Assembly (NCBI GenBank): GCA_022750435.1
Contig: JAKIVS010000001.1
Coordinates: 286,895 to 350,894 of the forward strand
DNA: 64,000 nt
DNA from: Thermoplasmata archaeon
GTDB lineage: Archaea > Thermoplasmatota > Thermoplasmata > Lutacidiplasmatales > UBA184
Direction: 5' to 3'
The notes under the pieces were generated by a model. The model had not been told where the DNA came from and did not search any database. It saw nothing but the letters and a program-made list of their open reading frames with translations. This document shows positions 670 through 63,691 of this stretch, piece by piece; the first letter of the stretch is position 1, and each line of letters starts with the position of its first letter. The position numbers and the translations under genes were made by a program.

Positions 670-3600
670 TTGACGGATTTCGTTGCTCGTTCCGGACGCG
701 CTGGGGCTCGAAGCGGTGTTCGGGCTCCGTCCGCTCGGTTCGCGGTCGTCGCCGCGGTCGGACTCCTCCTCCTCGGCTCCGCGCTCCTCGTCTCGATTCC
801 CGCCACGTCGACCCACCGGTTCGCGTCCCTCTCCCACCTTCTGTACGACCGGCCCCATGACCCGCCGGCCGCGGCGCCGGCGGGAGTGGGGACCGTCGTC
901 GACACGCTCGAGCTGACGACGAACCGGCTCCTGCCCGGGAACCAGCAGCTTCCGGTGCAATCGGACCCCCAGATGGTCCTCTTCGACCCCGCTACAGGGA
1001 ACTTCTACGTCCGGGGGGGCGCGGGGGAGACGCTCACGGTCGTGAACGCCTCCACCGACACGGTGCTGACCGCCCTTACGATCGGGTACGGGGGCAGCGC
1101 GTACATCCCGAACGTCCCGACGATGGCGATCGATTCGACCACGGGGTACCTGTACGAGACGAACCCGTCCGCGAGCACGGTCGGCGTCGTCCAAACCTCG
1201 ACGAACACCCTGGTCGCCAACGTCTCCGTTGGCGGCAGCCCCGGCGGGATCGTGTTCGACCCGTCGAGCGGGAACCTCTACACCAGCAACTGGGTCAACG
1301 GCACGGTCTCGGTCATCTCCGGATCGACGAACACCGTGGTGGCCACGATCCCGGTCGGCGGCGAGGCCGGCGCCATCCTGTACGACTCGGTCGACCAGGA
1401 GGTCTTCGTCTCCAACTTCAACAAGGGAAACGTCTCCGTCATCGACACCTCCACGGAGACGGTCGTCGCGAATCCGGTCACCGGTATCGCCAGCGGGGAG
1501 CCCGTCGCCCTCGCGCTGGACTCCCAGGACGACCTCGTGAGCGTCGTCAATTCGCTCACCGACAACGTGACCGTCATCAACGGAACGACGAACGCGGCGA
1601 TGACCTCGGTTGGAGTCGGGACGGTCCCCACGTCCGCGACGTACGCTCCGAGCACCGACACGCTGCTCGTCGCGAACGGGGCCTCGAACAACATCACCGT
1701 CCTCCAGCAGCCCGCGGAGACGATCCTCGCGACGATTGCCATCGGGCATGGCGCGCAGGGAGCCGCCGAGGATCCCGTCAGCGGCGATATCTACATCGCG
1801 GACTACGGCGCCAACTCCGTCGCCGTCGTCGACCCGGCCAACAACAGCCTGATCGCCACCGTCACGACCAACAACTTCCCCGAAGACCTCGGCGTCGACA
1901 CCTCGTCGGGCAATGTCTACGTCGGCAACGAGGGGACGTCCCAGGTGGACTCGAACCTGACGGTCATTTCCGGATCGAGCGGGACGTCCGTCGCCTCGAT
2001 CCCCCTCGTCGTCTACCCTACGAGCCTGACGGCCGCTCCGAACGGGAAGGTCTACGCCGTCGACCACGGCGGCGTCGGCGCCTTCATCATCCCGGAAACG
2101 ACGAACCGGGAGGGCGGCTACGCTCCCTCGGCGTCCCCGGGCCCCGTCGTCTCGGCGTACGACACTGCCACAGGGGACCTGTGGATCGCCAGCGCGGGCA
2201 CGGGGACCGTCAACGTCGTCACCGCCTCCGGAAGCCCGGTGGCCACCCTGGAACTGGGGTTCGACACCGACGGTCTCGCCTACGACGCCGGGAACGGCCG
2301 GATCTACGTCTCCAACTACTACAGCGGCAACGTCACCATCGTCAACGGGGCGACGGAGACCGTCGTGAGCGTGCTCACGGTCGCCGCGTTCAACAGCCTC
2401 GGCGCCGAGATCTACGACCCCGTGGACCACGCCGTGTACGTGGCGGACTACTCGTACCACAACGTCACCGTGGTGAACGGGGCGTCGACGAACGGCTCCA
2501 TCCAAGTCGGGAGCGATCCGACGTCGTTCGCCTACGACCCGGAGAACGGCACGATCTTCGTCGCCAACTACGGCTCGAACAACATCAGCGTCATCAACGC
2601 GTTGACGAACCAGGTCACCGGCAGCATCGGGGGCTACTTCCCCGAGTATCTGGCGTACGACGCCGCGACCAACGCGTTGTACGTCTCCACGAGCGAGAAC
2701 GGCGAGGTGGACGCCGTCAACGCGACGACGTACGCCTCGCTCGGAACCCCTCTGCTCATCCAGGACTCGATCGACTCCGGCGGGATCGCGTACGGCGCGA
2801 CCTCCCAGGAGATCTACGTCGCCAACACCTACGACAGCTCGATCTCGATCCTCTCGAGCTCGGCGGCCCCGACGAACGCCACCTACCCCGTGACCTTCGT
2901 GGAATCCGGGCTCGTTGGCTCGCCGACCTGGGAGGTTACTCTCGGGTCGGTTCCGAACAGCTCCAGCACGAACCAGATCGGATTCGTGGAACCGAACGGG
3001 ACCTACGGCTTCGTGGTCGGGACCGTACCGGGGTACGTCGTGAACGTTTCGTCCGGGGACGTCACGGTCCTCGGCGCCTCGAAGACGGTCGACCTTGGGT
3101 TCACCGCCGCCATGGGCGGAGGCGGCGGCAGCTACCCCGTGCAGTTCAACGAGTCCGGCCTCCTCCAAGGAACCCCGTGGGGCGTCTCGCTGTCGCCGAG
3201 CGGCGCGACGGGAGCGTCCACCGCCGATGCCCCCAGCCCCATCGTCTTCGAGGCACCGAACGCGAGCTACACCTTCACGGTCCACGCCGTCACCGGCTAC
3301 ACCTCGGCTCCGGGGACCGGTACGGTGGCCGTCGCGGGTCAGCCGCGGTACCAAACGATCGACTTCACCGCGGTCCCGTCGCCCCTTACGGCGACGCTCG
3401 CCGTCGCACCGGCCGAGGTGACGCTCGGGGCGACGTCCACCCTCACGACCACCGCCAGCGGCGGGTCGCCGTCCTACTCGTACTCCTACTCCGGCCTACC
3501 GGCGGGCTGCGCCTCGGACAACAGCGCGACCGTCCAATGCACGCCGACCGTGACGGGGACCTTCGCCATCACCGTCAACGTGACCGATTCGGCGAAGCTG

Positions 3601-3831
3601 ACAGTGGAGGCTCATGCGACGTTGCAGGTCATTCCCCCTGTGAGTACGAACATCTCCCCGAGCGGCTCCTCGAATTGGGTGTGGGAGATCGTCGGGGGAC
3701 TCGTGATTCTCTTCGCCCTGCTCCTTCTGTTCGTCTGGTGGCGGCGCCGCAAGAAGGCGGAGCCGGCCCTGCCCCCAACACCGGGCCCGGCGACCTCGAT
3801 TCCGGCACCGCCACCGAGCGGTCCGTCCTAG
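670..3831 (+). CDS. Giant cell-surface protein: about 15 YVTN/YncE-type beta-propeller blades, two YPVTF..W.V.L domains, a PKD-like module and a C-terminal TM anchor
   Basis: TTG-start ORF. N-terminal hydrophobic signal/anchor (RFAVVAAVGLLLLGSALLV). Repeated ~40-aa blades (TIFVANYGSNNISVINALTNQV, RIYVSNYYSGNVTIVNGATETV, DIYIADYGANSVAVVDPANNSL). Two ~90-aa modules start YPVTFVESGLVGSPTWEVTL and YPVQFNESGLLQGTPWGVSL. PKD-like GGSPSYSYSYSGLP. C-terminal helix VGGLVILFALLLLFVWW followed by RRRKK. Many N-x-S/T sequons. Confidence 0.8.
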   Translation: MTDFVARSGRAGARSGVRAPSARFAVVAAVGLLLLGSALLVSIPATSTHRFASLSHLLYDRPHDPPAAAPAGVGTVVDTLELTTNRLLPGNQQLPVQSDPQMVLFDPATGNFYVRGGAGETLTVVNASTDTVLTALTIGYGGSAYIPNVPTMAIDSTTGYLYETNPSASTVGVVQTSTNTLVANVSVGGSPGGIVFDPSSGNLYTSNWVNGTVSVISGSTNTVVATIPVGGEAGAILYDSVDQEVFVSNFNKGNVSVIDTSTETVVANPVTGIASGEPVALALDSQDDLVSVVNSLTDNVTVINGTTNAAMTSVGVGTVPTSATYAPSTDTLLVANGASNNITVLQQPAETILATIAIGHGAQGAAEDPVSGDIYIADYGANSVAVVDPANNSLIATVTTNNFPEDLGVDTSSGNVYVGNEGTSQVDSNLTVISGSSGTSVASIPLVVYPTSLTAAPNGKVYAVDHGGVGAFIIPETTNREGGYAPSASPGPVVSAYDTATGDLWIASAGTGTVNVVTASGSPVATLELGFDTDGLAYDAGNGRIYVSNYYSGNVTIVNGATETVVSVLTVAAFNSLGAEIYDPVDHAVYVADYSYHNVTVVNGASTNGSIQVGSDPTSFAYDPENGTIFVANYGSNNISVINALTNQVTGSIGGYFPEYLAYDAATNALYVSTSENGEVDAVNATTYASLGTPLLIQDSIDSGGIAYGATSQEIYVANTYDSSISILSSSAAPTNATYPVTFVESGLVGSPTWEVTLGSVPNSSSTNQIGFVEPNGTYGFVVGTVPGYVVNVSSGDVTVLGASKTVDLGFTAAMGGGGGSYPVQFNESGLLQGTPWGVSLSPSGATGASTADAPSPIVFEAPNASYTFTVHAVTGYTSAPGTGTVAVAGQPRYQTIDFTAVPSPLTATLAVAPAEVTLGATSTLTTTASGGSPSYSYSYSGLPAGCASDNSATVQCTPTVTGTFAITVNVTDSAKLTVEAHATLQVIPPVSTNISPSGSSNWVWEIVGGLVILFALLLLFVWWRRRKKAEPALPPTPGPATSIPAPPPSGPS

Positions 3832-4387
3832 CGGGCGGGAACAGCCAGCGGCCGTAGTTTGGCGACTCTGCCCAGGCTCGCATCGGTGTTCGTGGTCCCG
3901 GGGAACGGGATCGTCGCCCCGTTGGAAGCGCGACCTTCTCGCAGATCGCCTTCGTGAGCTGGGCTCGCTGGCGAACCCTTCCCCCCGGATCGCCCGCTCG
4001 AAAGGATCCGGGACCGTCCGTCGGCGGCGTCCGGCGCGGAAGCGTCCGTCGGAGTACGCACGGAGACGAACCGACCCGGGTTCGACTCACCGACGGGAGA
4101 TTCGACGCCGCCCAAGCGTCCGGGGTTCGATCGGAGAGTTCGCCCCGGCGGTCTCCCGCCGACGGGCGGTCGGTCATGGCGGCGGAGGAGCGCGACCGCT
4201 GGTTGTTCGTGGAGGCGGGCCACGCTGGGTCGCGCGCGAGCGCCCGACCGCCGGGTCCGACCGCGACGCGAAGTCCCGGCAGCGTCCTCGCTAGGTTCGC
4301 CTCCCGCAGCCGAGGCGCGGATGTCACTGCTCGCCCGCGCCAAGGGGACGTGCCGGGGGAGCGGTCCGGCGGGCCCGGGAGCCGAAC

Positions 4388-4666
4388 TCAGGGCGCCGGA
4401 GTAGAACGGGGCGGGTCGGCCGGGGGCGCGAGCTTCTCTCGCTTCGGAAAATAGACGTACACGAGATACGCGAGGATGGCGACGTACAGGATCACGCCAC
4501 CGATGATGGCGAGCACGACGTTCTCCCACACCCGGGAGGTGCCCACGTCCTGGATGTACCCCAGGAGGGCCGAGACCGCGACGGTGAAGGCCACGCCCAG
4601 TGCCATCTGAAGGCGAGTCGGCCGCCGACGGTACAACACCGCAGCAATCAGCCCGGGAGCGAACAT
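4388..4666 (-). CDS. Small membrane protein (3 predicted helices)
   Basis: 92-aa ORF with hydrophobic helices (GVAFTVAVSALLGYI, VVLAIIGGVILYVAILAYLVYVYF). Lies downstream of the FN3 surface-protein gene on the same strand. No family recognised. Confidence 0.45.
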   Translation of the reverse strand: MFAPGLIAAVLYRRRPTRLQMALGVAFTVAVSALLGYIQDVGTSRVWENVVLAIIGGVILYVAILAYLVYVYFPKREKLAPPADPPRSTPAP

Positions 4667-4895
4667 CCAGGGCCCGAGAGGGCCCGGCTACTTAGGTGGG
4701 CCCACGGGAGCGGCGGATCCCCCCCTCGGAGTTCCGCCCGCCGAAGTCGAGTCGACCGCGCGAGGCTCGTGCGCACTCACGGCCCGAGCGAGCCGAGAGT
4801 TCCCGGCACGATCGCGGACGAAGGAACCGCCCACTCCCCCCGCTCCGACTCCGGCACGCGGAGCCCCCGACGTCCGCCAAAAATGCCCGGCCGTA

Positions 4896-7565
4896 TCACG
4901 GAAGACGTCGGCGTCGCCGCTGGAGGGCCAGGGCCACGACCACGATCAGGGCTCCTGCGATGGCCAGTCCTCCGAGGACGGGCACCGACGTGTCGCAGGG
5001 GGTGCCGCATACCGGTCCGCCTCCGGGGCTCGCATCGTTCCTCTCCGTCGTGCCGTTGACGAACGGAAGGTACCCCGACCCGATCGTCACGTTCCACGTG
5101 GCGACCGTGAACTGATAAGCCGTGTTCGGAAGCAGCGAACCGACGGTGAACGCGGCGGCGCGAGCGCCCAACGAGAACGTGACGTTGGTGGCACCCGCTT
5201 GCTGCACGTGATACTCCAGGCTGACATTGCCGACCCCGGTCGCCGGGAGCGTCCACGCCAGCGAGACGCTCGTCGTCGTGGCGGACGTCACCCGCAATCC
5301 GCTCGGCGGACTCGGCCCGGAGCTCCCGGGGCTCGTCGTCCAAACCGGAATCTCGGCGGAGCGCGAGGACGGCGCGGTCACGTTCCAGTTCCACGCCCCC
5401 ACCGAGACGACGTAGGGCGAGTCCGGCGTGAGGTCGGGGAGGGAGGCTGAGGCCGCGGTACCTTCCGAGATCGTCCAGGTGATGGCGGAGCCGGCCGGCC
5501 CATAGTAGATGGTGATGTTCGTGAAACTTCCCGCGGTCGGATTGGTCCAGGACACCGAGACCGTCGTGCTGGTGTTCCCCGTCTGGTGCAACCCCGTCGG
5601 GGCCGAGGGCGCCGCGAAGAGCGTCGTCCCGCCGGCCCTCGGCGAGGTGAGGCTAGGAACGGTGCCGTTCCACGCCGTGACCTCCACGAAATAGGTCGTG
5701 CCCGAGGACAAACCCGCGATCGTCGCCATCGCGGCCGTTCCCTCCGAGATCACCTCCGTCACCGGCCTCGCCCTCGTTCCGTAGGTCAGCGAGATGTTGT
5801 CGAAGGACGACACCGGAACTGGGTTCGTCCACGTCAAGGAAAGCGAGGTGAGGGTCGCCCCCGTGACCACGAGCGAGGTGGGCGCGGCGGGCGTGCCCGA
5901 GAGCGTGGTGGCCGTGGCGCAGTTGCTCACCGTGCTGTTCCCCGACGCATTCCACGCGACGACGGCCAACGCGTACGCGGTTCCGCCCAACAACCCCGTG
6001 GAGGTGTGACTTGTGATCGGTCCGGCCCCGGAGGTCGTGCCAATCAGGGCGGAGCATGTGGAGCCCGCGTAGAGGAACGTCGTGTCGTTCACGATTCCCG
6101 GGCTCGGGCTCTGAGTCCAGGTCCACTGGAGGGACGAGGAGGTGAGCGCCATGCCGCTCACCGGCCCAACCGGAAGTGGTGGAGTGGGAGAGACCGTAGG
6201 GTTGACCGGGAGCCAGTACACCATCAGCGTGCACACCGTGCCGCACGACTTCGCGGAGGAGCTGCCGTTGTCCATGATGGCATTCTCCCATCCCGACGGG
6301 TTCCCGATGAACTGCCACGAGTTGACCCACGGGCCCCCCCCGAACCCAAAGTTGTAGCTTTGTAGGAACGTGTTGAACCACGTGGCATTGGCTCCGCCGA
6401 GATCGAAGATCCCCGAGTCGTTGAGCGGGTCGATGTAGGGCCCCTGACTCGCGGGGCCGACGGTGGGATTGTAGCCGTTGAAGAAGTACTGCGAGTCGTC
6501 CCAGTACGCGTAGGCGGACGGGTCGGTCGTCCCCAACGTGCCCGTGTCCTTCGTCGTGGGGTCGCCGTCGAGGCTCATGTTGCGGTAGAGTGAGATGACC
6601 ATGTTGCGATTCGGGTCCCCTCCGCCACCGAGACCCCAGAGCGTGGTCCGGGGTCCCGAGACGTTGAAGAAATAGGGCATGTTCTCGAAGTCGGTTCCCG
6701 AGATCGTCCCTCCCCACCGAGTGAGGATGTGGATGGTCGGAGACGAGCCGCTCGCGAAGGTGGCGTTGAACGCCCGCACCTCGAGCGTGTCGTTGGAGGT
6801 CTGATCGACGTCCTCGATGACCTGGTCCGCGCCGGGCACGTAGGTCCCGCTGTTCCAATTCGGCAACGCGGGGGCCGAGGCGGTCGCCAGCACATGCGAA
6901 TAGACGTTGAACAGGTCGACGGTCGATTCCGCGAAGTTCGTGTAGAAGACCCACCCCGAAGCATTGAACGCACCGAGGTTCACATTCGTCGAGCTCGTGC
7001 CTTCGTCGATGGTTGTGTTCGCCCAGGAAAACGTCCCGTTGGCAATGCTGTACCACTCCACGTCGACGTACCCGTGGCTGTTGGAACCCATCTCGTACAG
7101 CGCGGAGAGCGTGCCGCTCCATCCCTGGAATCCCTGGACCATCGCCGGGCTATCGTAGCTCGACAGATTCGTTGGCCACGCGCCGAGGGTGCGGTAGACG
7201 CCCGTCTGCAGGTCGTAGGAGAGGAGATGACCCGAGGCGTTGACGTAGAAGGCGGTCATCTGCGCGCCCGGAATCTGATTGCTCACCACGAGGGAGTCGA
7301 ACATGTTCACCCCCGGGAAAAAGTGACGGGTGCCCGGATAGAACTTCAGGGAGTAGTTCTTCCAGTCAATCGTCTGGTTCCAGTAGGTCCATCCCGGGGG
7401 GAGACCCCCGGCCCGATCCGGGATCGGCGGCGTCGGAGTCTGGACGACCGCGGGGGCGAGGGGTGGCGGCGACGCTGGGGTCCAAGGTGCCGACGAGAAC
7501 GTCGGTGCGGCCGACAGGACGAACGCGACGGCGAAGGCCACGGCGAGCAGGGTTCGGAGGTGCAT
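4896..7565 (-). CDS. Secreted, membrane-anchored surface protein with an unassigned ~450-aa N-terminal domain and four FN3-like modules
   Basis: Signal peptide MHLRTLLAVAFAVAFVLSAAPTFSSA. FN3-like repeats (PTSLVVTGATLTSLSLTWTNP, PTGLHQTGNTSTTVSVSWTNP, PSGLRVTSATTTSVSLAWTLP). C-terminal helix LGGLAIAGALIVVVALAL followed by QRRRRR. Very dense N-x-S/T sequons. Confidence 0.8.
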   Translation of the reverse strand: MHLRTLLAVAFAVAFVLSAAPTFSSAPWTPASPPPLAPAVVQTPTPPIPDRAGGLPPGWTYWNQTIDWKNYSLKFYPGTRHFFPGVNMFDSLVVSNQIPGAQMTAFYVNASGHLLSYDLQTGVYRTLGAWPTNLSSYDSPAMVQGFQGWSGTLSALYEMGSNSHGYVDVEWYSIANGTFSWANTTIDEGTSSTNVNLGAFNASGWVFYTNFAESTVDLFNVYSHVLATASAPALPNWNSGTYVPGADQVIEDVDQTSNDTLEVRAFNATFASGSSPTIHILTRWGGTISGTDFENMPYFFNVSGPRTTLWGLGGGGDPNRNMVISLYRNMSLDGDPTTKDTGTLGTTDPSAYAYWDDSQYFFNGYNPTVGPASQGPYIDPLNDSGIFDLGGANATWFNTFLQSYNFGFGGGPWVNSWQFIGNPSGWENAIMDNGSSSAKSCGTVCTLMVYWLPVNPTVSPTPPLPVGPVSGMALTSSSLQWTWTQSPSPGIVNDTTFLYAGSTCSALIGTTSGAGPITSHTSTGLLGGTAYALAVVAWNASGNSTVSNCATATTLSGTPAAPTSLVVTGATLTSLSLTWTNPVPVSSFDNISLTYGTRARPVTEVISEGTAAMATIAGLSSGTTYFVEVTAWNGTVPSLTSPRAGGTTLFAAPSAPTGLHQTGNTSTTVSVSWTNPTAGSFTNITIYYGPAGSAITWTISEGTAASASLPDLTPDSPYVVSVGAWNWNVTAPSSRSAEIPVWTTSPGSSGPSPPSGLRVTSATTTSVSLAWTLPATGVGNVSLEYHVQQAGATNVTFSLGARAAAFTVGSLLPNTAYQFTVATWNVTIGSGYLPFVNGTTERNDASPGGGPVCGTPCDTSVPVLGGLAIAGALIVVVALALQRRRRRLP

Positions 7566-7739
7566 TTCTGCCGCGAGACGCGGGACGCCGCATCCGCGAT
7601 TTGAGTTGTTCGGTTCGGCTCTCAGTCCCGCCTTCGCGGGTCTCTCATGGGAACGGAAGCGGGACCCCCGGGTCCCTGCGGGATCCGAGGCTACCGAGGC
7701 GGAGGGGTCCGACGTTCCGGATCGGGGGGCGCCGGTCCG

Positions 7740-8966
7740 CTAGCCCAGACCCGGCAACGGTCGGCCGTCGACCTCTACGCGGGCGCCGACGTTGATCGCG
7801 AACCCGAAGAACGGGGACTTGTTCGCCCCCCCGTTGAAGATATTCCCTCCGACCGTCACCATCACCGCGCCTTTCTCGACGTCCTCGACCTGCGGTGTAT
7901 CGTGCAGCGCCGGGTTCAGCCCGATGCTGAACTGGCCGGGTTGGTCCCGCCCTTTGCCCCCGGCCCGGAACCCTTCCTCGAACGCCTCGCCGCCGGACGC
8001 GAAGTGGTGATCGACGAGCCTCCCCTTCCGGAACTCGAACGACCCACCGGTCGCGGTGGCGGTCTCAAAGTAATCGGTCCGGTTTGCGACGAACGTGCCG
8101 TCGGCTACCGCCTCATCGAGCGCGACCCGAATCGAACCGGCCGGTAACCCGCCCATGCTCGCGAAGACGCTCGGTCGGGGTGGGGGCGGGACGCGCCCCG
8201 CGTTGACGGTCGCCTTCCGGCCCCGAAGGCCGAGCGTGAGGTCGGTCCCGGCGTCGTCGCGAATGCGGAGCTTGCGGCCGCGTTCGAGCGCGCGGGCGAT
8301 CGGCGCCGCCGCTCGCTGGAGGGAGTCCGGGTCGACCAGGGTCGCGGCGAGGACCTGATCCATCCACGTCCGCTCGTCGACGCCGTACGCTTCCGCGAGG
8401 TTCGGGTACGGCCGGCCGAGCTCGAGCCGGAACCCTCGGAGACCCGCCTTCTTCGCGGCGGCGTACCAAGCATCGTTGAAGGCGAAGGCTCTTTGCCGCC
8501 GTTTCGCCGGGAGCTTCGCGAGCCGAACCTTGTCGCCGACGCCCCACATGTGCAGGTAGGCGTCGGTCTTTCCGAGCAGGGCCCACTCGTGGGCCGCCGC
8601 GGCCCCAAGAACCGCCTCCTCCTTTCGGTCGAGGGCGTCCCAGTAGGCGTCCTCGTCCTCGAACAGGATCACCGGGAGCGCGCCGAGGTGACGGGCCTCC
8701 CGCGCGAATGCAGTCGCCCAATCGAGGGTGTGGCTGAACCCCTCCACCGTCAGCCGCTCGCCCTTCTTCAGCTGGAGATTCTTCGTCAGCACCGAGCGGG
8801 CGACCTGGGACATCTTCTCCGGGGGAACGGGACTCGCGGACATCGACGGATTGGAGCCGACGCTTGTATTGAACCCGACCCCCTTCTTTGCGGCCGGGAA
8901 CTCCGGGATCGGCGGTGGAGTCCGGGCCGGCCCGTCCGACCTCCCCTCGGAGGGCGAAGTTCGCAC
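7740..8966 (-). CDS. M29 (AmpS/PepS/aminopeptidase T)-like aminopeptidase
   Basis: Motif order resembles thermophilic M29 aminopeptidases: KKGERLTVEGF near the N-terminus, GTDLTLGL, LPAGSIRV, then a C-terminal GAVMVTVGGN..GFAINVGARVEVDG. The true start may be an internal Met (8843 or 8813). Confidence 0.55.
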   Translation of the reverse strand: MRTSPSEGRSDGPARTPPPIPEFPAAKKGVGFNTSVGSNPSMSASPVPPEKMSQVARSVLTKNLQLKKGERLTVEGFSHTLDWATAFAREARHLGALPVILFEDEDAYWDALDRKEEAVLGAAAAHEWALLGKTDAYLHMWGVGDKVRLAKLPAKRRQRAFAFNDAWYAAAKKAGLRGFRLELGRPYPNLAEAYGVDERTWMDQVLAATLVDPDSLQRAAAPIARALERGRKLRIRDDAGTDLTLGLRGRKATVNAGRVPPPPRPSVFASMGGLPAGSIRVALDEAVADGTFVANRTDYFETATATGGSFEFRKGRLVDHHFASGGEAFEEGFRAGGKGRDQPGQFSIGLNPALHDTPQVEDVEKGAVMVTVGGNIFNGGANKSPFFGFAINVGARVEVDGRPLPGLG

Positions 8967-9030
8967 CGGGGGTCTCGTTGTGGACGCCGATTTGACTCGT
9001 CCTCAAAATACCTCCAAATAGCCCGACGCG

Positions 9031-11952
9031 GTGCTGGCGCCGATGCTAGCTCCCGGTGTCGTGCGCAGGTTGGCCTTCGTCGTCGCCGTGGTTCTGGTGG
9101 TCGTGGCCGGCACCGCGCTCGCGGGATTCTCGACGGTTGCCCCGACGCACGTTCGGGGGACTGGAACGTTCCAGTCGCTCCGCTTGTCTCCGACCTCGTT
9201 CTCGAGTTGCAACGGCACCCAATTCGCGAGCGCCGTGCAGGCCGGCGGCACGATCACGTTCGCCGGAAATTGCAACCTGCAGATCAACGCGACTATCGTC
9301 GTGGGAGCCGCGCTCACCGTGACCATCGATGGCAACGGGTTCTCCGTCGTGCTGCTCGGTCACAGCGACCGACTTTTCGAGGTCAACGGGGGCACCCTCA
9401 CCATCAACGCCGTGAGCCTGGAGGACGGTTCCTTCGTCGGCACCAACGGTTTGGCGGGCGGAAGCGGCGGGTCCGGCATGGACGGATTCGCGGGCGGGCC
9501 CGGATCGGGCGGCACGGGCGGCACCGGTCAATCGGGCACGGCCGGGGGCCCAGGGAACCCGGGAACGGCCGGCGGGGTGGGGTATCTCGGCTTTACCGGG
9601 CAGACCGCGGCCGGAGGCGCGCTGTTCATTCATGCGGGGTCTCGGGTGACCCTGAATCACGACCTGTTCGAGTCGAACTCGGTCACCGGCGGAAATGGCG
9701 GCCCGGGGGGCTCCGGAGGTCCCGGTGGCTCAGGCGGGTATGGCGGCCAGGGAGGCGGCGGTGGGTACGGCAGTTCGGGCACCTCGGGCGGTTCGGGAGG
9801 ATCCGGGGGGGACGGAGGCAATGGTGGGGCGGGGGCCCCGGGAGGAAACGCGAGTGCGGGTTCGCCCGGTGGAATCGGCGAGGGCGGCGCGATCGCGAAC
9901 TACGGATTCTTGGTGCTCGGAAACGACACCTTCGATGCGAACACGGCGTACGGAGGCACCGGGGGGTCTGGCGGCACCGGGGGTTTGGGCGGTGCCGGCG
10001 GTTCCTCCGGTGAGGGTGGCTCTGGAGGTTCCGGGGGTCAGGCGACCTCGGGTTCCGGGGGGACCGGCGGAAGTGTTGGGTTCAACGGTGCGAGTGGTGC
10101 CGGCGGGCCCGGCGGTCTTGGCGGGGCGGGGGGCCCGGGAGGCGCCGCCCTCGGAGGCGCGATCTTCAGCACCGGAATCCTGTATTCCAACGATACGAAC
10201 TTCCTTAGCAACCAAGCGAACGGTGGCTCCGGATTCTCCGGCGGCTCGGGCGGCGGCGGCGGGGCCGGCGGGTACGGGAACGGCGGTGCCGAGGGACCTG
10301 GCGTCGGCGGAATTGGAGGTACGCCCCTTGCGAACGGCGGCGGCGGGGGCCCCGGTGGGGGGACGCGAGGAACCCTCGCGGGGGTGCCGGGCGGCGCGGG
10401 CGGGGCGGCCGGTTCCGACGGAGCCGGCGGTACGGGAGGCGGGGCGTTCGGTGGAGCCGTCGACTCCTCGGGGACGGTCGCGCTGGACCAGGACGCTTTC
10501 TCCTACGACCATGTCGTCGGCGGGGGCGGCGGATACGGAGCGTCCGGAGGAAACGCCGGCGCCGGCGGGACCGGAGGGGAGGGCGATACGGGCGGCAGCG
10601 GCGGCCCAGGCGGCTCGGGAACTCAAGGGACCGCGAGCAGCGGCGGACCCGGCGGCTCCGGCGGCGTCGGAACTCGCGGAGGGGCTGGGTCTACCGCGGG
10701 GGCGGCCGGCACGCCGAGCGCGGGCGGCGGAGGCGGCGCCGGCGGTGCGGGGGCCGGCGGAGGTCTCTACCTCTCGTCTCTCAGCACGGCGACCATGGCT
10801 CGGACCAATTTCACGGGCTGCGGCGCGTCCGGCGGGACGGGCGGCCCTGGCTCCACGGGCGGGTCCGGCACCTACGCCGGGAACGCGGGCCCGGGTGGGG
10901 ACGGAGGCGCGAGCGGAACCGCAGGCTCGGGAGGCGCCTCAAATCCAGGTCCGTCAGAAAATGGGGGCCACGTCGCGAACGGCTCCAAGGGCGGTGCGGC
11001 CGGCACCAGCGTCAACGGAACCGCGGGGGGAAGAGGCGGTTCGGGAGGCACCGGCGGCGTCGCCGAAGGTGGCGGGGCGTTCACGGCGGGGACGGCCTCG
11101 GTCACCAGCGTGAATTTCACCACGGACTTCGTCAGCGGCGGACACGGCGGGACCGGAGGATACGGCGGCACCGGTGGCTCGTCCGGATACGGAACGGCGG
11201 GCGGATCCGGGGGCAACGGTGGCTTTGGCGGGAATGGAGATTCTCTCGGGGCCGGTAGCCACGGGGGCAACGGCAGCCTCGGGGGCAACGGCTCGAAGGG
11301 ATTCCGGGGAGGAGCCGGCGGCGCGGGGGGCCCCGGCGGCATCGGCGGCGGGGCGTACGGGGGCGGCCTCTACGCGTCGGGCTCGTGGAGCCTCACGACC
11401 GCCGCGTTCACGGCCGACACGGCCACCGGCGGCAACGGAGCGACCGGGGGCCCCGGCGGAACCGGAGGGGCCGGAGGCTCGGGCGGATCCGGGGGCTCGG
11501 GGGGATCCGGTGGAACGGGAGGCGGTGGCGGTGCTCCGGGCAAGGGCGGACGGGGCGGCAACGGTGGTCCCGGAGGGAGCGGCGGGACGGGTGGCGCCGG
11601 AGGGGCCTCGGCGAATGGAGGCCACGGCGGCAACGCCAACGGCGGAGCCATCTACGCCGCGACGACGGCCACGGTTGAGTCGGGGGTCACCTACACCACG
11701 AACTCGGTCCTCGCGGGGTCGGGTGGGGTCGACAACTGCGTCTCGTTCGAGGCGTGCCCGGGGACCGGAGGCTTGGGCGGTACGGCCGGTCCCGCCGGTG
11801 CGGCGGGTATCGGGGGTTACAACGGCAACGGAGTCGGTCGGGGCCCGAGCGGCAAGGCGGGGACGGCCGGAACGGCGGGCGGGTCCGGAGCGACGGGGGT
11901 CGCGGGGACGAGCGGCGCAGCGGGGACCGGATCTCATCCTAACCAATCGTAA
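9031..11952 (+). CDS. Secreted Pmp-type (GGAI/FxxN) beta-helix repeat protein with long polyglycine GGxGGxGG spacers
   Basis: GTG start with signal/anchor RRLAFVVAVVLVVVAGTALAG. About eight repeats of the chlamydial polymorphic-membrane-protein type (GGAIANYGFLVLGNDTFDAN, GGAIFSTGILYSNDTNFLSN, GGAIYAATTATVESGVTYTTN), separated by runs such as GGPGGSGGPGGSGGYGGQGGGGGYG. No C-terminal anchor. Confidence 0.75.
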   Translation: MLAPMLAPGVVRRLAFVVAVVLVVVAGTALAGFSTVAPTHVRGTGTFQSLRLSPTSFSSCNGTQFASAVQAGGTITFAGNCNLQINATIVVGAALTVTIDGNGFSVVLLGHSDRLFEVNGGTLTINAVSLEDGSFVGTNGLAGGSGGSGMDGFAGGPGSGGTGGTGQSGTAGGPGNPGTAGGVGYLGFTGQTAAGGALFIHAGSRVTLNHDLFESNSVTGGNGGPGGSGGPGGSGGYGGQGGGGGYGSSGTSGGSGGSGGDGGNGGAGAPGGNASAGSPGGIGEGGAIANYGFLVLGNDTFDANTAYGGTGGSGGTGGLGGAGGSSGEGGSGGSGGQATSGSGGTGGSVGFNGASGAGGPGGLGGAGGPGGAALGGAIFSTGILYSNDTNFLSNQANGGSGFSGGSGGGGGAGGYGNGGAEGPGVGGIGGTPLANGGGGGPGGGTRGTLAGVPGGAGGAAGSDGAGGTGGGAFGGAVDSSGTVALDQDAFSYDHVVGGGGGYGASGGNAGAGGTGGEGDTGGSGGPGGSGTQGTASSGGPGGSGGVGTRGGAGSTAGAAGTPSAGGGGGAGGAGAGGGLYLSSLSTATMARTNFTGCGASGGTGGPGSTGGSGTYAGNAGPGGDGGASGTAGSGGASNPGPSENGGHVANGSKGGAAGTSVNGTAGGRGGSGGTGGVAEGGGAFTAGTASVTSVNFTTDFVSGGHGGTGGYGGTGGSSGYGTAGGSGGNGGFGGNGDSLGAGSHGGNGSLGGNGSKGFRGGAGGAGGPGGIGGGAYGGGLYASGSWSLTTAAFTADTATGGNGATGGPGGTGGAGGSGGSGGSGGSGGTGGGGGAPGKGGRGGNGGPGGSGGTGGAGGASANGGHGGNANGGAIYAATTATVESGVTYTTNSVLAGSGGVDNCVSFEACPGTGGLGGTAGPAGAAGIGGYNGNGVGRGPSGKAGTAGTAGGSGATGVAGTSGAAGTGSHPNQS
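9440..11930. repeat. Low-complexity GGN-triplet-rich DNA (coding) with open frames on both strands
   Basis: The track shows long stop-free ORFs in several frames on both strands over this stretch (9695..11113, 9730..10626, 10872..11342, 10954..12123, 11174..12196). That is typical of a GGC/GGA/GGT-rich tract. Confidence 0.7.
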
Positions 11953-12264
11953 TCCTGGACGAGAACTCTTCGCGGCGCGGTCGAGGGTCCCCGGGGGAGC
12001 GTCGTCCCCCGGCGCCGACGGCCCCCGCAAGGCGACCGGCCGCCGCGGGGGCGATTCCCCAATCGACGGCATCGTCCGGGCCCCACTCGGTCGGCGGCCG
12101 GCGGGGGAGAGGACAGGCGTCACGCCCTGCCTGGACCGTCACGCGGTAGAGGTTCCGGAGTCCGGCGGGACCAGGATCCGGCCGCCCCAATCTTAGTGGG
12201 AGGACGAAGCTCCGGCGTCGACTTCGGGCTTGATAACCCCCCTCCCCTTGGCGAGCTGCGCTGA

Positions 12265-14460
12265 GTGTTGTTTTTGGGACGATCATGGACCGACCCACCA
12301 CTTCGAGCGAGCCGAACGAGAAGCGACCTCTGGGCGCTCCTTTCGATTGCGGTCGTCGCCGTCGAGCTGTTGAGCGTCCTCGGAGTCGCGGTGGCGTCGG
12401 ATCCCAGCCGATCCGGCGGGAGTCAGGTCGCCAACGTCGTCTCGGGACCGGAGGGCGTGGGTGTGGCCTCGACCCAGCTCATGTTGGCCGAAGGCTCGCT
12501 GGCCGAAGGAGCGGGACCGGCCCACGGCGCCGCCTGGCACTGTTCGGCCCCCGGCTCCGGCGGTGCGAGCGCGACGTGCAACGCCGCTCCTCCTGCCTCC
12601 TCGGCTCCGGCGCCCCTCGCGTCGACTCCGTCCTGGGCCAAGCTGACCTATCCGGTCCCCATCACCCGAATCGGGGCGAGCATGGTGTACGATGCGAAAG
12701 ACAAGTACGTGCTCCTGTTCGGCGGATACAACACCTCCGCGCTCGGCGACACCTGGAAGTTCAGCGGAGGAGTCTGGACCCATCTCTCCCCCGGGCGGGC
12801 CCCCTCCGCCCGCTACTTCGCCGGCATGACGTACGACGTCACCGACGGCTACGTCCTCCTCTTCGGAGGATACTCCTCGACGTACCTTTCGGACACGTGG
12901 AAATTCGTGACGGGAGTTTGGACGAACCTCTCTCTGAGCACGAACCCCGGCGGCCGGTACGGGGCCGCGATGGCGTACGACGCCGCGGATGGGTACGTCG
13001 TCCTGATCGGCGGAGTCACGAGCACCGGATGGGCCGCGCCCGACACCTGGACGTTTGCCGCGGGGGCCTGGAGCAACAAGAGCGTGCTCACCCCGTCGCC
13101 CTCGCCTCGAACCTACGCCAGCCTCGATTACGACCCGGCCGACGGCTACGTCGTGCTGTTTGGCGGCTTGAACACCACCTACGGAATTCTCGGCGACACG
13201 TGGACGTACGCGGCCGGAAAATGGACCTTGCTCTCCCCGTCTCCCACCCCACCCGCGCGAGCCCAGGCCGCGATGGCCTACAGCGCCCTGGACGGCAAGC
13301 TCGTCCTCTTCGGCGGCGTTGGAACGGGAGTGTACTACTCGGACACCTGGACCTTCGTCGCGGGCACGTGGACGAAGATCGCCACCGCCGTCCACCCGTC
13401 GAAGCGGGTGGAGTTCGCCATGGCCGACGGAACGTCGACCACGAACGTCCTCCTGTTCGGTGGGAGCGGCCCGGTCTACTACCTGAACGACACGTGGACA
13501 CTTCACGGGCTCATCTGGGCCAAGGCGATCCCCCGCGTCCCGGCCGCCGAAACCGGGGCGACGATGACCTACGACGAAAAGGACGGCTACGTCCTCTTGT
13601 TCGGCGGTGAGACGTCGACCGGCTACTCGTTCTTCGGGACCACGTGGAAGTTCCTGCATGGGATCTGGACGCCGCTGTTCCCGGCCGTCTCCCCGAGTGC
13701 GCGAGCCTTCGCCTCGATGGCCTACGATCAGGCCGACGGCTACGTGGTCCTCTTCGGTGGGATGAGCCGATTCGGGGTCGCTCTCGACGACACGTGGAGT
13801 TTTGTCGGGGGCGTTTGGACCGCCCTGCCCGGGGACACCTCCGCCGGGGGGGTCCCGGGCGTCTCGTACCCGATCGGGCGGTTTCAATCGTCGATGACCT
13901 ACGACGCGGCCGACGGGTATCTGCTGCTGTTCGGGGGGACGAACACGAGCTACTACAGCGGCGTGGGATACGTGGGCGACACGTGGTCGTACTCGGCGGG
14001 CGTCTGGACCAACATGACCCCCACGACGCCGACGGCGACGAACACCCCGTCGCAACGCGCGTCGACCGAGATGACCTACGACTCCGAGGACGGCTACGTC
14101 CTCCTGTTCTCGGGGCTCCAGTGGAATTCGATTTCGGGCTACTCCAGCTACGCCGACACGTGGTCGTTCTCGGCCGGGGTCTGGACCAATCTCACATCCT
14201 CGATGTCGGCCAGCCCGCCCGGGGTGGCCAGCGGGGCGCTGGTCGACGACACCTACGACGGGTATCCTATCCTGTGGGGGGGACTCACCGCAGGAGGGGC
14301 CCACATCACCTCCTCGACGTGGGAGTTCACCGGGACCGGGTGGGTGAAGCTGTCGCCCGCCGCGGCCGCCGCGGCCCAGTCCGGGTTCTCGATGGCGTTC
14401 GACCCTTCGGACAATGAGGTCGTTCTCCTCACCGTGACCGGGCCGACCTGGACTTACTGA
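12265..14460 (+). CDS. N-terminally anchored Kelch-repeat protein (11-12 blades, likely two beta-propellers)
   Basis: GTG start and TM/signal LWALLSIAVVAVELLSVLGVAVA. Blade signature repeated about every 50 aa: YVLLFGGY...GDTWKFSGGVWTHLSP, SDTWKFVTGVWTNLS, GDTWTYAAGKWTLLSP, ADTWSFSAGVWTNLTS and others. Confidence 0.85.
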   Translation: MLFLGRSWTDPPLRASRTRSDLWALLSIAVVAVELLSVLGVAVASDPSRSGGSQVANVVSGPEGVGVASTQLMLAEGSLAEGAGPAHGAAWHCSAPGSGGASATCNAAPPASSAPAPLASTPSWAKLTYPVPITRIGASMVYDAKDKYVLLFGGYNTSALGDTWKFSGGVWTHLSPGRAPSARYFAGMTYDVTDGYVLLFGGYSSTYLSDTWKFVTGVWTNLSLSTNPGGRYGAAMAYDAADGYVVLIGGVTSTGWAAPDTWTFAAGAWSNKSVLTPSPSPRTYASLDYDPADGYVVLFGGLNTTYGILGDTWTYAAGKWTLLSPSPTPPARAQAAMAYSALDGKLVLFGGVGTGVYYSDTWTFVAGTWTKIATAVHPSKRVEFAMADGTSTTNVLLFGGSGPVYYLNDTWTLHGLIWAKAIPRVPAAETGATMTYDEKDGYVLLFGGETSTGYSFFGTTWKFLHGIWTPLFPAVSPSARAFASMAYDQADGYVVLFGGMSRFGVALDDTWSFVGGVWTALPGDTSAGGVPGVSYPIGRFQSSMTYDAADGYLLLFGGTNTSYYSGVGYVGDTWSYSAGVWTNMTPTTPTATNTPSQRASTEMTYDSEDGYVLLFSGLQWNSISGYSSYADTWSFSAGVWTNLTSSMSASPPGVASGALVDDTYDGYPILWGGLTAGGAHITSSTWEFTGTGWVKLSPAAAAAAQSGFSMAFDPSDNEVVLLTVTGPTWTY

Positions 14461-61089: not shown

Positions 61090-62298
61090 GTGACCGAGCT
61101 TCCGCCCGGGCGCCGGGGGGTCCCCTCCGGGGCCCTCTTCATCGTGCGGATCGTCTACGCGTTCAACTGGTACAACATCGGGGCCGTCCTGCCCCTCATC
61201 GGGGTCTCCCTGGCCGCGTCCCCCTCCGAGCTCGCCGTCGTCCTCGGGGCCTTCCTCCTCGGCGTCGGCGTCTTCCAGATCCCGGCCGGTCTCGCCGCGG
61301 TCCGTTGGGGTTCCCGACGAGTCTCCCTCGCCGGCGTGGCCGTCTTCGGCCTCGCGGGGATCGCCTCCGCCTTCTCGCCGACGTGGCCGGACCTCGCCGC
61401 GATCCGATTCCTCGGCGGCGTCGGCGCGGCGTTCTTCTTCTCCCCGGCCCTCAGCCTCATCGCGTCGTACTTCCCCCCCGGGGAGCGGGGGCCCGTCATC
61501 GGGTTCTACAACGGCGGGTTTTCGATCGGCGGCGCCATTGGCCTCGTCGGTGGGGTGGGCCTCGGCCTCGCGTACGGCTGGCCCGCTGCCTTGGGATTCG
61601 GGGGCATCGCGTTGCTCCTCACGACGGCAGCGGCCTACTTTGTCCTCCCGAAACAGCCGGCCGAAGGGTCCACGAGCGGTGCGGCCGCGGTCTACGCCGC
61701 CGGTCGCTCGGTCCTGCACAGCCGCTCGATCTGGGGGCTCTCGATTGCCCTGACTGGATTCTGGACGGCGATCTACCTCGTGGCCCAGGACTTCGTCGAC
61801 TACGTCCACACGGTCCACACGGCGTGGGGCGTCGGAGTGGCCGGGATCCTGACGGCCGTGGTCGTGGTCTCGGCGTTCCCCGGGGGACCGTTCGGCGGGT
61901 GGATCGCCGAGCGGGGCGCGGACCGCCGGCTCCTCGTGGGCGGGTTCGGCGCCCTGGTGGGCGTACTCGTCCTGCTGATTCCGTTCGCGAACCTCTGGAC
62001 CATCGGTCCCCTGTTCCTCGCCTTGGGCTTCTTCGACGGCGTCGTCTACGCGATCCTGTACCTGATCCCGACCTATCTCCCCGAGACTCAGGGAGAGGGA
62101 CTTGCCCTCGGAGTCGGCGTCGTCAACTCGATTCAAGTCCTGCTCGGGAGCGGCTTCGTGGTCCTCTTCGGGGTGCTCGTGGAGCGGGTCGGATACAACG
62201 GCGCCTGGCTCTACGCCGGAATCCTCAGCCTCGCGCTGCTCCCCGGGTTGCTCTTGGTCGCGCCGAGCCGCGGCTCGGCGACGTCGACAGCACGGTGA
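61090..62298 (+). CDS. MFS transporter
   Basis: About 12 hydrophobic helices, with the MFS loop motif AAVRWGSRRV between TM2 and TM3. Confidence 0.85.
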   Translation: MTELPPGRRGVPSGALFIVRIVYAFNWYNIGAVLPLIGVSLAASPSELAVVLGAFLLGVGVFQIPAGLAAVRWGSRRVSLAGVAVFGLAGIASAFSPTWPDLAAIRFLGGVGAAFFFSPALSLIASYFPPGERGPVIGFYNGGFSIGGAIGLVGGVGLGLAYGWPAALGFGGIALLLTTAAAYFVLPKQPAEGSTSGAAAVYAAGRSVLHSRSIWGLSIALTGFWTAIYLVAQDFVDYVHTVHTAWGVGVAGILTAVVVVSAFPGGPFGGWIAERGADRRLLVGGFGALVGVLVLLIPFANLWTIGPLFLALGFFDGVVYAILYLIPTYLPETQGEGLALGVGVVNSIQVLLGSGFVVLFGVLVERVGYNGAWLYAGILSLALLPGLLLVAPSRGSATSTAR

Positions 62299-63691
62299 CG
62301 AGGTTCGTGGGGGTCCCCTCGAGGGGATACCCGGCCGTGAGGACGATCCGGCCTCCCCTTCGGCGTCCGGGCCGGTGAGCGACGAGATTCTGCGCAAACC
62401 CCCGCATCGCCTCCAGCGTCATGTTCGCGGGGCACGGAAGCGCTTCGACTCCCCACGTCAGGGCCAACCGTCGTCGGGTCTCGACTCCGGCGCAGAGCGC
62501 AAGGATCGGTGCCGAAGGACGGCTCGCCGCCACGAGCCGGGCCGTCCGACCGGACGAGCTGGGAGTGACGATGGCCTCCGCGTGCACGTCGATCGCGAGG
62601 CGGACGGCCGCGTCCGCCACCGACCGATCCGAAGAGGGGGGGAGAACCGAGGGCCGCGCGATCTGGAACTCTCCGGTCGCCACCCCGGCCTCGGTGCTCC
62701 GGCAGATGCGGTCCAGCCACGCCACGGATTCGAGCGGGTACCGCCCGGTCGCGCTCTCTTCGCTCAACATCACGGTGTCGGCGCCGTCGAGGACGGCGTT
62801 GGCGACGTCCGTCGCCTCGGTCCGGGTCGGCCGCGGCGCGGCGACCATGCTGAGGAGCATTTGCGTGGCCACGATCGCCGGTTTCTGCGCCGCGTTCGCC
62901 GCGCCCACCAGGCGCTTCTGCTCCAACGCCAGCCGCTCGAGCGGCACCTCGATGCCGAGGTCGCCCCGTGCGACCATGATTGCGTCGGCGGCTTCGACGA
63001 TCTCTTCCCGCCGGGCGAGCGCTTCCGCCCGCTCGATCTTGGCGATGATGCCGACCTGGGCGCGACCGGACCGGGCGAGCAAGGTCCGGAGAGCGCGCAC
63101 ATCCGAGGCTGCGCGAACGAACGAGAGCGCGACCCAGTCAACGCCCGCATCGACCGCGATGGCGAGGTCGACGAGGTCCTTCTCGCCCAGAATTTCCGCC
63201 CGCAGTCGCGCCCCTGGGAGGAAGACTCCCGCGTGGGACGAAACCGTCCCCCCCGAACCGACGACCGTCGCAATCTGGCTGAGCCCAACCTTCCGGACGG
63301 CCAGCTCCACCGAGCCGTCGCCGAGCAGGAGCCGGTCTCCGATTCGAACCGAGGTGCCGAGGTGGTCGACCGTGACGGACGCCCGATCCGTGGTTCCGGG
63401 GAGGCCGGACGTGTCGAGCACCCATCGCTGCCCCTCCGAGAGCGTAACGGACCCTCCGGCCATCTCGCCCATTCGAATCTTCGGGCCCTGCAAGTCCGCG
63501 ACGAGGGCAATCTCTCGTCCGCTCCGTTCGCCGGCGGCGCGCAACGAACGAAGGGTCGCACGATGTTCGTTGTCGGTCCCATGGGAGAAGTTGATCCGGA
63601 ACGCGTCCACGCCGAGGGCCACCATCCGGTCGAGCACCGCGGGGGCGGCGCTCGCGGGCCCGACGGTCGCCAGAATCTTCGTTCGGCGCAC
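62225..63691 (-). CDS. pyk: Pyruvate kinase
   Basis: GTG 63689-63691 inside ORF 62225..63805. RRTKILATVGPAS, FRINFSHG, IIAKIERAEA, MVARGDLGIE, and QMLLSM. Confidence 0.9.
   Translation of the reverse strand: MRRTKILATVGPASAAPAVLDRMVALGVDAFRINFSHGTDNEHRATLRSLRAAGERSGREIALVADLQGPKIRMGEMAGGSVTLSEGQRWVLDTSGLPGTTDRASVTVDHLGTSVRIGDRLLLGDGSVELAVRKVGLSQIATVVGSGGTVSSHAGVFLPGARLRAEILGEKDLVDLAIAVDAGVDWVALSFVRAASDVRALRTLLARSGRAQVGIIAKIERAEALARREEIVEAADAIMVARGDLGIEVPLERLALEQKRLVGAANAAQKPAIVATQMLLSMVAAPRPTRTEATDVANAVLDGADTVMLSEESATGRYPLESVAWLDRICRSTEAGVATGEFQIARPSVLPPSSDRSVADAAVRLAIDVHAEAIVTPSSSGRTARLVAASRPSAPILALCAGVETRRRLALTWGVEALPCPANMTLEAMRGFAQNLVAHRPGRRRGGRIVLTAGYPLEGTPTNLVTVLSTSPSRGSARPRATRGAARG

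Follow-up and report, generated by a model that had tools for sequence, protein, structure and literature searches.

A glycine-rich, apparently exported archaeal protein predicted to combine beta-helix coils with polyglycine-II tracts

To our knowledge, few ordered glycine-rich polyproline-II bundles have been solved, these being the springtail antifreeze proteins, Obg, acetophenone carboxylase, phage gp38 and ALK/LTK. The gene described here lies on the forward strand of a 64,000-nt stretch of contig JAKIVS010000001.1 (assembly GCA_022750435.1; the whole stretch is hereafter called the window) from a soil Thermoplasmata archaeon with a genome of 1.92 Mb, and its product shares features with several described systems. 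The solved structure of gp38 of phage S16 (PDB 6F45) offers a precedent for beta-solenoid layers with interleaved polyproline-II helices. Among solved bundles, helices with more neighbours contain more glycine (bioRxiv 10.1101/2023.11.25.568672), and the GGX domains of PGRS proteins have been predicted, but not solved, as polyglycine-II sandwiches with glycine facing inward (PMC9436101). The chlamydial polymorphic membrane proteins (Pmp; PF02415, TIGR01376) are secreted surface proteins with GGA(I/L/V) and FxxN motifs in a predicted parallel beta-helix, as here, and the surface-exposed PE_PGRS proteins are likewise built of GGX triplet repeats. The archaeal protein is probably an exported, rigid hybrid of beta-helix and polyglycine-II structure that acts as an extracellular scaffold or adhesin, and belongs to an archaeal clade that probably arose via horizontal transfer. 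Its family would then represent a large, regular and apparently non-pathogen case of polyglycine-II helices periodically stitched to beta-helix coils.

The open reading frame (ORF) at 9031..11952 begins with GTG and includes 376 Gly codons (38.6% of residues). Eight units of the form GG[AG][ILVFY]-x(10-20)-[FY]xx[ND], referred to as rungs, start at amino acids (aa) 195, 285, 375, 474, 577, 681, 778 and 871, with unit-to-unit spacings of 90, 90, 99, 103, 104, 97 and 93 aa. The regular expression matches nine times, as compared with 0.36 +/- 0.61 matches (maximum 4) in 2000 shuffles of the same residues, which bears out an earlier prediction, made from the DNA alone, of about eight GGA(I/L/V)...F/YxxN/D units. 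The inter-rung tracts are 65-80 aa long with a Gly fraction of 0.44-0.61; the period-3 autocorrelation of Gly is 0.46, 0.41, 0.32 and 0.28 at lags 3, 6, 9 and 12, and GGxGG occurs 69 times, with S, T, P, A and N the commonest residues at x. This PGRS-like composition had been anticipated in the same prediction; however, the tracts are not the almost pure GGX that it described, each being laid out as (GGX)n, an irregular middle loop of 10-30 aa and a second (GGX)n arm. About one Gly per triplet is found in the edge tracts (T0 and the C-terminal tail) and about two in most inner tracts. The sole hydrophobic segment covers aa ~5-35 (helix 12-29 in the AlphaFold2 model) and none is present near the C-terminus within the last 100 residues, as expected for the proposed N-terminal signal or anchor without a C-terminal counterpart. 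Judged from this sequence, the protein appears to be exported, by a Sec-type signal or with an N-terminal anchor. Export by the twin-arginine (Tat) route was set aside, as the RR of the window copy is not conserved in its paralogues or orthologue. There are 12 N-glycosylation sequons.

The full-length AlphaFold2 model, a monomer built from a 42-sequence alignment, has a mean predicted local distance difference test score (pLDDT) of 78.1 and a predicted template modelling score (pTM) of 0.74. For the fragment aa 50-400 the mean pLDDT is 96.8 and the pTM 0.85, all five models falling within 96.3-96.9. The capping domain (pLDDT 95-98) is modelled as one helix and about four beta-helix coils, and each rung as 3-4 short strands of 3-5 residues, while the GGX tracts reach a pLDDT of about 90-98 with no DSSP helix or strand. 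When both models were compared with the PDB by Foldseek, the first match was 7JJV, a nine-helix polyproline-II bundle antifreeze protein (E 7e-4 for the full length and 2.3e-5 for the fragment, probability 0.80, template modelling (TM) score 0.11-0.26, 25-26% identity). It was followed by right-handed beta-helices, namely Jun a 1, RbmB, VexL, tailspikes and Rhombotarget A (probability 0.97), with E-values of 3e-3 to 0.1 and TM-scores of at most 0.26. Thus no solved structure matches the whole protein, but each of its two components is recognised; a search of BFVD yielded nothing but weak matches to Gly-rich and beta-helix proteins of phages, with TM <0.25. The beta-helix rungs of the original prediction are supported by the modelled strands and these matches, whereas the tracts between them are modelled as ordered and not as floppy.

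The springtail and snow-flea antifreeze proteins (7JJV, 3BOG) share the period-3 Gly pattern and the small polar third residues, but they are arthropod proteins of 81-126 residues with an ice-binding function and no beta-helix. In beta-helix surface proteins (pectate-lyase fold; Rhombotarget A 9CDU/9CDV; tailspikes) the coils are similar to those modelled for the N-terminal cap and the rungs; the archaeal protein differs in lacking a catalytic signature, and about two thirds of its repeat region is non-beta. The nearest analogue is phage gp38, where glycine-rich polyproline-II helices likewise alternate with beta-solenoid layer segments, and where a conserved Gly scaffold, variable exposed loops and an extracellular binding role resemble what is seen or proposed here. 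However, gp38 is a compact tip domain of ten short helices and about four solenoid layers, as opposed to eight regularly iterated rung-plus-tract units over ~830 residues; no sequence similarity between the two was found and 6F45 was not among the top 50 Foldseek matches. The likeness is an analogy only.

Apart from the model, the conservation of the tracts provides independent evolutionary support for their being folded. The four full-length archaeal copies (described below) are 45-56% identical; their alignment takes up 996 columns, or 987 for the three from this genome. In the four-copy alignment, gaps occupy 2 of 458 columns in the GGX arms, as compared with 7 of 115 in the mid-tract loops, 6 of 190 in the rungs, 2 of 90 in the N-terminal cap, 5 of 84 in the C-terminal part and 17 of 59 in the signal region. 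After aa 140, 248 of 358 Gly columns (69%) are invariant versus 37 of 469 non-Gly columns (8%), a difference inflated by the preference of aligners for placing Gly on Gly; the scarcity of indels is free of that bias. In addition, an orthologue at 73% identity shows no net indel over aa 9-270, and the family consensus of 42 sequences retains the layout of rung, (GGx)~9, irregular loop, (GGx)~9 and rung. The third triplet residues and the loops diverge fast between paralogues on this fixed scaffold. The evidence therefore says that the glycine tracts are not flexible or variable spacers.

These observations are best accounted for by the following arrangement. The N-terminal capping domain would start a right-handed beta-helix, to be followed by eight single beta-helix coils (GGAx...FxxN), each leading into a (GGX)n segment of 65-80 residues. 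These segments would fold as left-handed polyglycine-II/polyproline-II helices packed mutually and against neighbouring tracts, with the two glycines of each triplet pointing to the packed interior, and the third residue (Ser, Thr, Pro, Ala or Asn) and the mid-tract loops pointing to the solvent. A stiff rod or blade would result, with exposed residues and loops that vary from one paralogue to the next; within it, the rungs may stack directly, with polyglycine-II hairpins, or the tracts may form short-helix bundles. A role as surface scaffold or adhesin is likely, as fast-diverging third residues and loops on a fixed scaffold are the pattern of a binding scaffold or adhesin. Furthermore, homologues carry Ig-like, cadherin-like, SLH, dockerin, Calx-beta, GH24 lysozyme or VanY domains, which marks the module as extracellular. 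The biology is modest, that of an accessory surface protein, probably from bacteria, with a function that is inferred only. The structural interest is moderate: the family may be a tractable system in which to study the construction and stabilisation of polyglycine-II sheets, and protein designers may find in it a candidate building block.

Several points weigh against this arrangement, in addition to the aligner bias noted above. The alignment behind the model is only 37-42 sequences deep and its homologues are repetitive, and the confidence of AlphaFold2 on periodic low-complexity sequence has been little calibrated by experiment. Five mid-tract loops are of low confidence (those given for T3 to T6 in Table 1 and aa 830-836). 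The polyglycine-II geometry is deduced from tracts that are devoid of DSSP structure yet high in pLDDT and from the top Foldseek match, while all Foldseek TM-scores are below 0.3 and 6F45 lies outside the top 50 matches. Finally, no operon is common to the three archaeal contexts of the gene (M29 peptidase/Kelch; GH15-like/ROK; L7Ae/Cas4-like).

A bolder extension of the hybrid model is possible, although it is put forward tentatively: the protein may belong to an unsolved fold class in which 4.8-angstrom beta-helix coils each feed a glycine-triplet hairpin into a continuous two-layer polyglycine-II sheet. With its flat Ser/Thr/Ala/Asn face and variable tip loops, the rigid blade so formed would attach to a regular surface such as polysaccharide, mineral or ice, or would provide specificity loops like those of gp38. 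The lattice spacing of such a sheet, about 4.8 angstrom, matches the helix rise. In the model and the alignment, the low-confidence, indel-bearing segments sit in the middle of the tracts, where hairpin tips would be; together with the Gly-poor edge tracts they fit a continuous polyglycine-II assembly, and the invariant length of the arms fits this fold class as well.

Alternatively, each GGX tract might consist of about three glycine-rich coils of 24 residues, which would turn the protein into a conventional beta-helix rod of ~40 coils. The tract length is indeed about three times the rung length (22-25 aa), and many right-handed beta-helices are present among the Foldseek matches. However, almost no DSSP strands are seen in any tract despite a pLDDT of 95-98, the strict period of 3 differs from the alternating in/out pattern of strands, the best structural match is a polyproline-II bundle, and the beta-helix targets align with TM <0.3, so that an all-beta solenoid is unlikely.

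Even less probable is the view taken in the original prediction, in which rungs of the Pmp family are joined by flexible or extensible polyglycine linkers to give an elastic fibre or a repeat-variable coat. It is in line with motifs far above chance, with the PGRS-like composition and with the low confidence of the mid-tract loops in the model. Nevertheless, tract length and Gly register are kept between copies of 45-56% identity and in the 73% orthologue, and the tracts are modelled at a pLDDT of 95-98. At the DNA level, no exact repeat within the gene exceeds 17 nt, no match elsewhere in the genome exceeds 20-21 nt, and Tandem Repeats Finder detected only weak 9/18/27-nt periodicity; DNA of this kind lacks a substrate for either replication slippage or assembly collapse. 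On this evidence the protein is neither an extensible nor a hypervariable fibre.

The Pmp kinship also fails in profile searches, an outcome that the original prediction had itself named as refuting. Neither Pfam nor NCBIfam gave a match to the whole protein at E<=10, and nothing significant was found when each rung, the N-terminal cap and the C-terminus were scanned in isolation, the rungs being scanned singly to exclude masking by the glycine tracts. PF02415 has no match in the whole genome, and only one of the eight isolated rungs reaches 9.1 bits (E=2.4; cut-off 20.6), over model positions 11-19, the part ending in GGAI. Remote homologues with a spacing of ~50 aa, a possible bridge to PF02415, had no Pfam match either. 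The lack of a match is explained by the repeat itself: in the Pfam repeat of 19 positions, GGAI follows directly on FxxN, whereas ~70 residues are inserted here, the distance from FxxN to the next GGAx being about 70-85 aa versus <10 in the Pmp repeat. An autotransporter architecture (PMP_M domain, C-terminal beta-barrel) was not detected by Pfam, the protein ends in a G-X-Y tail and the host is an archaeon; Pfam Beta_helix was not matched. What stands of the proposed Pmp-type repeat is therefore the motifs and the modelled strands, and not membership of the family. Similarly, no PE domain (PF00934) was detected by Pfam, the N-terminus being a signal sequence and a beta-helix cap, and the protein lacks ESX secretion. 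The PE_PGRS domains are length-polymorphic, tolerate large indels and have no regularly intercalated GGAx/FxxN rungs, in contrast to the length-conserved tracts of this family. By sequence, the protein belongs neither to the chlamydial Pmp family nor to the PE_PGRS proteins, the likeness being at motif level only, and it serves as a warning for annotation that GGAI/FxxN motifs and glycine richness are insufficient to claim either kinship.

For the G-X-Y parts (T0 and the C-terminal tail), a collagen-like role has to be weighed, in which they would form triple helices and so unite three beta-helix rods as a trimer, in the manner of phage tailspikes or BclA-type filaments. In all copies, a single invariant Gly recurs in each triplet of the last 58 residues, bacterial homologues likewise end in G-X-Y, and the tail gives a weak match to Pfam Collagen (15.8 bits, E 0.012), which is however under the cut-off of 27.2. 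A PDB search with the family profile gave only collagen G-X-Y matches, on T0 and compositional in nature, and with the single sequence only synthetic Gly-Ser linkers. Moreover, the register is broken at aa 932-941, prolines are very few, and the edge helices of a polyglycine-II bundle, too, would be expected to contain less Gly. A collagen-like trimer is accordingly very doubtful as an account of the protein, although the tail itself could either supply edge helices to the glycine assembly or serve for oligomerisation in a collagen-like way.

It is highly improbable that the gene is an artefact, either a misassembled GGN-rich repeat or a non-coding stretch kept open by composition. Long ORFs do overlap it in other frames and on the other strand, and the contig of one relative breaks within its gene copy. 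However, the internal repeats and genome matches are both below the k-mers of assemblers, and four independent full-length archaeal copies of 968-974 aa exist. The signal sequence, the conserved non-repetitive N-terminal domain and hundreds of homologues (429 clusters) belong to the 9031..11952 frame only, which is confirmed by homologues down to E 1e-46 and E 2.7e-91. The gene is real, and its short internal repeats argue against misassembly. In the same region, positions 9440-11930 of the window, several other frames, with the opposite strand included, are stop-free, with overlapping ORFs of 472, 340, 389 and 298 aa that translate to Arg/Ala/Pro-rich sequence; these frames are open because of the GGN composition, and these ORFs are most likely compositional artefacts. 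An RTX-like calcium-binding beta-roll of GGxGxD nonapeptides, as once proposed in print for PGRS sequences (PMC5054227), has a negligible chance and is rejected on sequence, as there is one GGxGx[DN]xUx match per protein and hence no nonapeptide array, 9-17 Asp in aa 140-900, and a period of 3 and not 9.

The window is archaeal, as it also codes for a P0 insertion domain, acidic ribosomal protein P1, aIF2-alpha and L15e, in agreement with the predicted archaeal, exported or N-terminally anchored protein. Two tandem paralogues are located 12-18 kb upstream of the gene, ~2.7-9 kb before the start of the window; they are 46-49% identical to the window protein and 56% to each other, and the AT-rich boxes TAAATACCGGGACTCGG and TATATACCGGGACTCGG lie upstream of their ATG codons. 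A further copy of 973 aa (47% identical) was identified in one of 24 other genomes of the genus, and a sample of 400 other genomes of the phylum gave no match at E<=1e-8; the family is rare in Thermoplasmatota. The 73% identical orthologue, the sole relative found by a locus search with the single protein, is on contig DASYOF010000004.1 (Thermoplasmata archaeon SMAG_U4422; 2935-3729), and has other upstream neighbours than the window gene, namely L7Ae and a Cas4-like Cys-rich protein. This contig ends after 265 codons, in the second glycine tract, which indicates that short-read assemblies lose these genes and that 'not found' does not equal absent. The genes of the family are thus probably under-counted in short-read metagenome-assembled genomes.

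Beyond the archaea, a phmmer search against 1.84 billion representatives retrieved 429 clusters at E<=1e-3, 154 at E<=1e-10 and 13 at E<=1e-30. The source names of close relatives are all 'hypothetical protein', and the few named matches are called after accessory domains (putative Ig domain, DUF1896, GH24 lysozyme, dockerin). The family is unnamed and has no Pfam or NCBIfam entry, even though its approximately 430 clusters share a confidently modelled architecture. Named organisms among the homologues include Acidimicrobiales, Solirubrobacteraceae and Pirellulales, and the contexts of homologues P0001 and P0005 are bacterial, with sigma-70, GerE, GGDEF and TetR genes; outside the archaeal lineage, the members that could be assigned belong to bacteria. 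According to a quick maximum-likelihood tree with a midpoint root only, the archaeal copies and P0003 form one clade (Shimodaira-Hasegawa-like approximate likelihood ratio test (SH-aLRT) 97), sister to P0012+(P0001, P0002). The archaeal copies were probably acquired from bacteria by horizontal transfer and subsequently duplicated; the tree fits one such acquisition. As a separate observation, some bacterial members join the rung/GGX module to peptidoglycan hydrolase domains (GH24 lysozyme in P0016, P0021 and P0026; VanY in P0011), which suggests, for those organisms, either targeting of cell-wall-degrading enzymes or a phage origin.

Table 1. Features of the gene, its paralogues and its neighbours (window positions unless a contig is given)
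Feature	Position	Strand	Remarks
Complete coding sequence, 973 aa + stop	9031..11952	+	Frame supported by homologues
N-terminal signal peptide or membrane anchor, aa 1-35	9031..9135	+	Core aa ~12-32, then ALA-G
N-terminal capping domain, aa 52-139	9184..9447	+	Conserved Cys60/Cys81 pair, LFEVNGGTLTINAVSLEDG motif
Tract T0, aa 140-192	9448..9606	+	Mostly one Gly per triplet (G-x-x)
Rung 1, aa 195-219	9613..9687	+	GGALFIHAGSRVTLNHDLFESNSVT
GGX tract T1, aa 220-284	9688..9882	+	pLDDT 84-98
Rung 2, aa 285-307	9883..9951	+	GGAIANYGFLVLGNDTFDANTAY
GGX tract T2, aa 308-374	9952..10152	+	
Rung 3, aa 375-397	10153..10221	+	GGAIFSTGILYSNDTNFLSNQAN; sole rung with PF02415 signal (9.1 bits)
GGX tract T3, aa 398-473	10222..10449	+	Low-confidence middle loop aa 423-441
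Rung 4, aa 474-496	10450..10518	+	
GGX tract T4, aa 497-576	10519..10758	+	Low-confidence loop aa 525-546
Rung 5, aa 577-600	10759..10830	+	
GGX tract T5, aa 601-680	10831..11070	+	Low-confidence loop aa 623-655
Rung 6, aa 681-702	11071..11136	+	
GGX tract T6, aa 703-777	11137..11361	+	Low-confidence loop aa 722-752
Rung 7, aa 778-799	11362..11427	+	
GGX tract T7, aa 800-870	11428..11640	+	
Rung 8, aa 871-894	11641..11712	+	GGAIYAATTATVESGVTYTTNSVL
C-terminal cap	11713..11760	+	Invariant GGVDNC...ACPG (Cys903/Cys909)
C-terminal G-X-Y tail, aa 911-973	11761..11949	+	One invariant Gly per triplet, no hydrophobic anchor
AT-rich 10-nt direct repeat	9001..9020	+	CCTCAAAATA/CCTCCAAATA; 11-30 nt upstream of GTG
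Paralogue, 968 aa	G000:C28 278060..280966		Same contig, with AT-rich box before ATG
Paralogue, 974 aa	G000:C28 281285..284209		Same contig, with AT-rich box before ATG
NHL/beta-propeller protein	670-3831	+	
FN3-repeat protein	4896-7565	-	
M29 aminopeptidase	7740-8966	-	
Kelch-repeat protein	12265-14460	+	

The gene is one of several that code for large secreted repeat proteins, the others having NHL, FN3 or Kelch repeats (Table 1); the island they form spans positions 670-14460 of the window. It shares a divergent intergenic space of 64 bp with the M29 peptidase gene, and this space holds the AT-rich direct repeat, a candidate archaeal TATA region as judged by position only. Elsewhere in the genome, a truncated member is found next to ribosomal protein genes (G000:C15, about 62025-62546, minus strand); it consists of a signal sequence, an N-terminal cap (CTESALASAVAGGGNGTF...) and ~50 aa of G-X-Y before the stop, and is either a short paralogue or a remnant.

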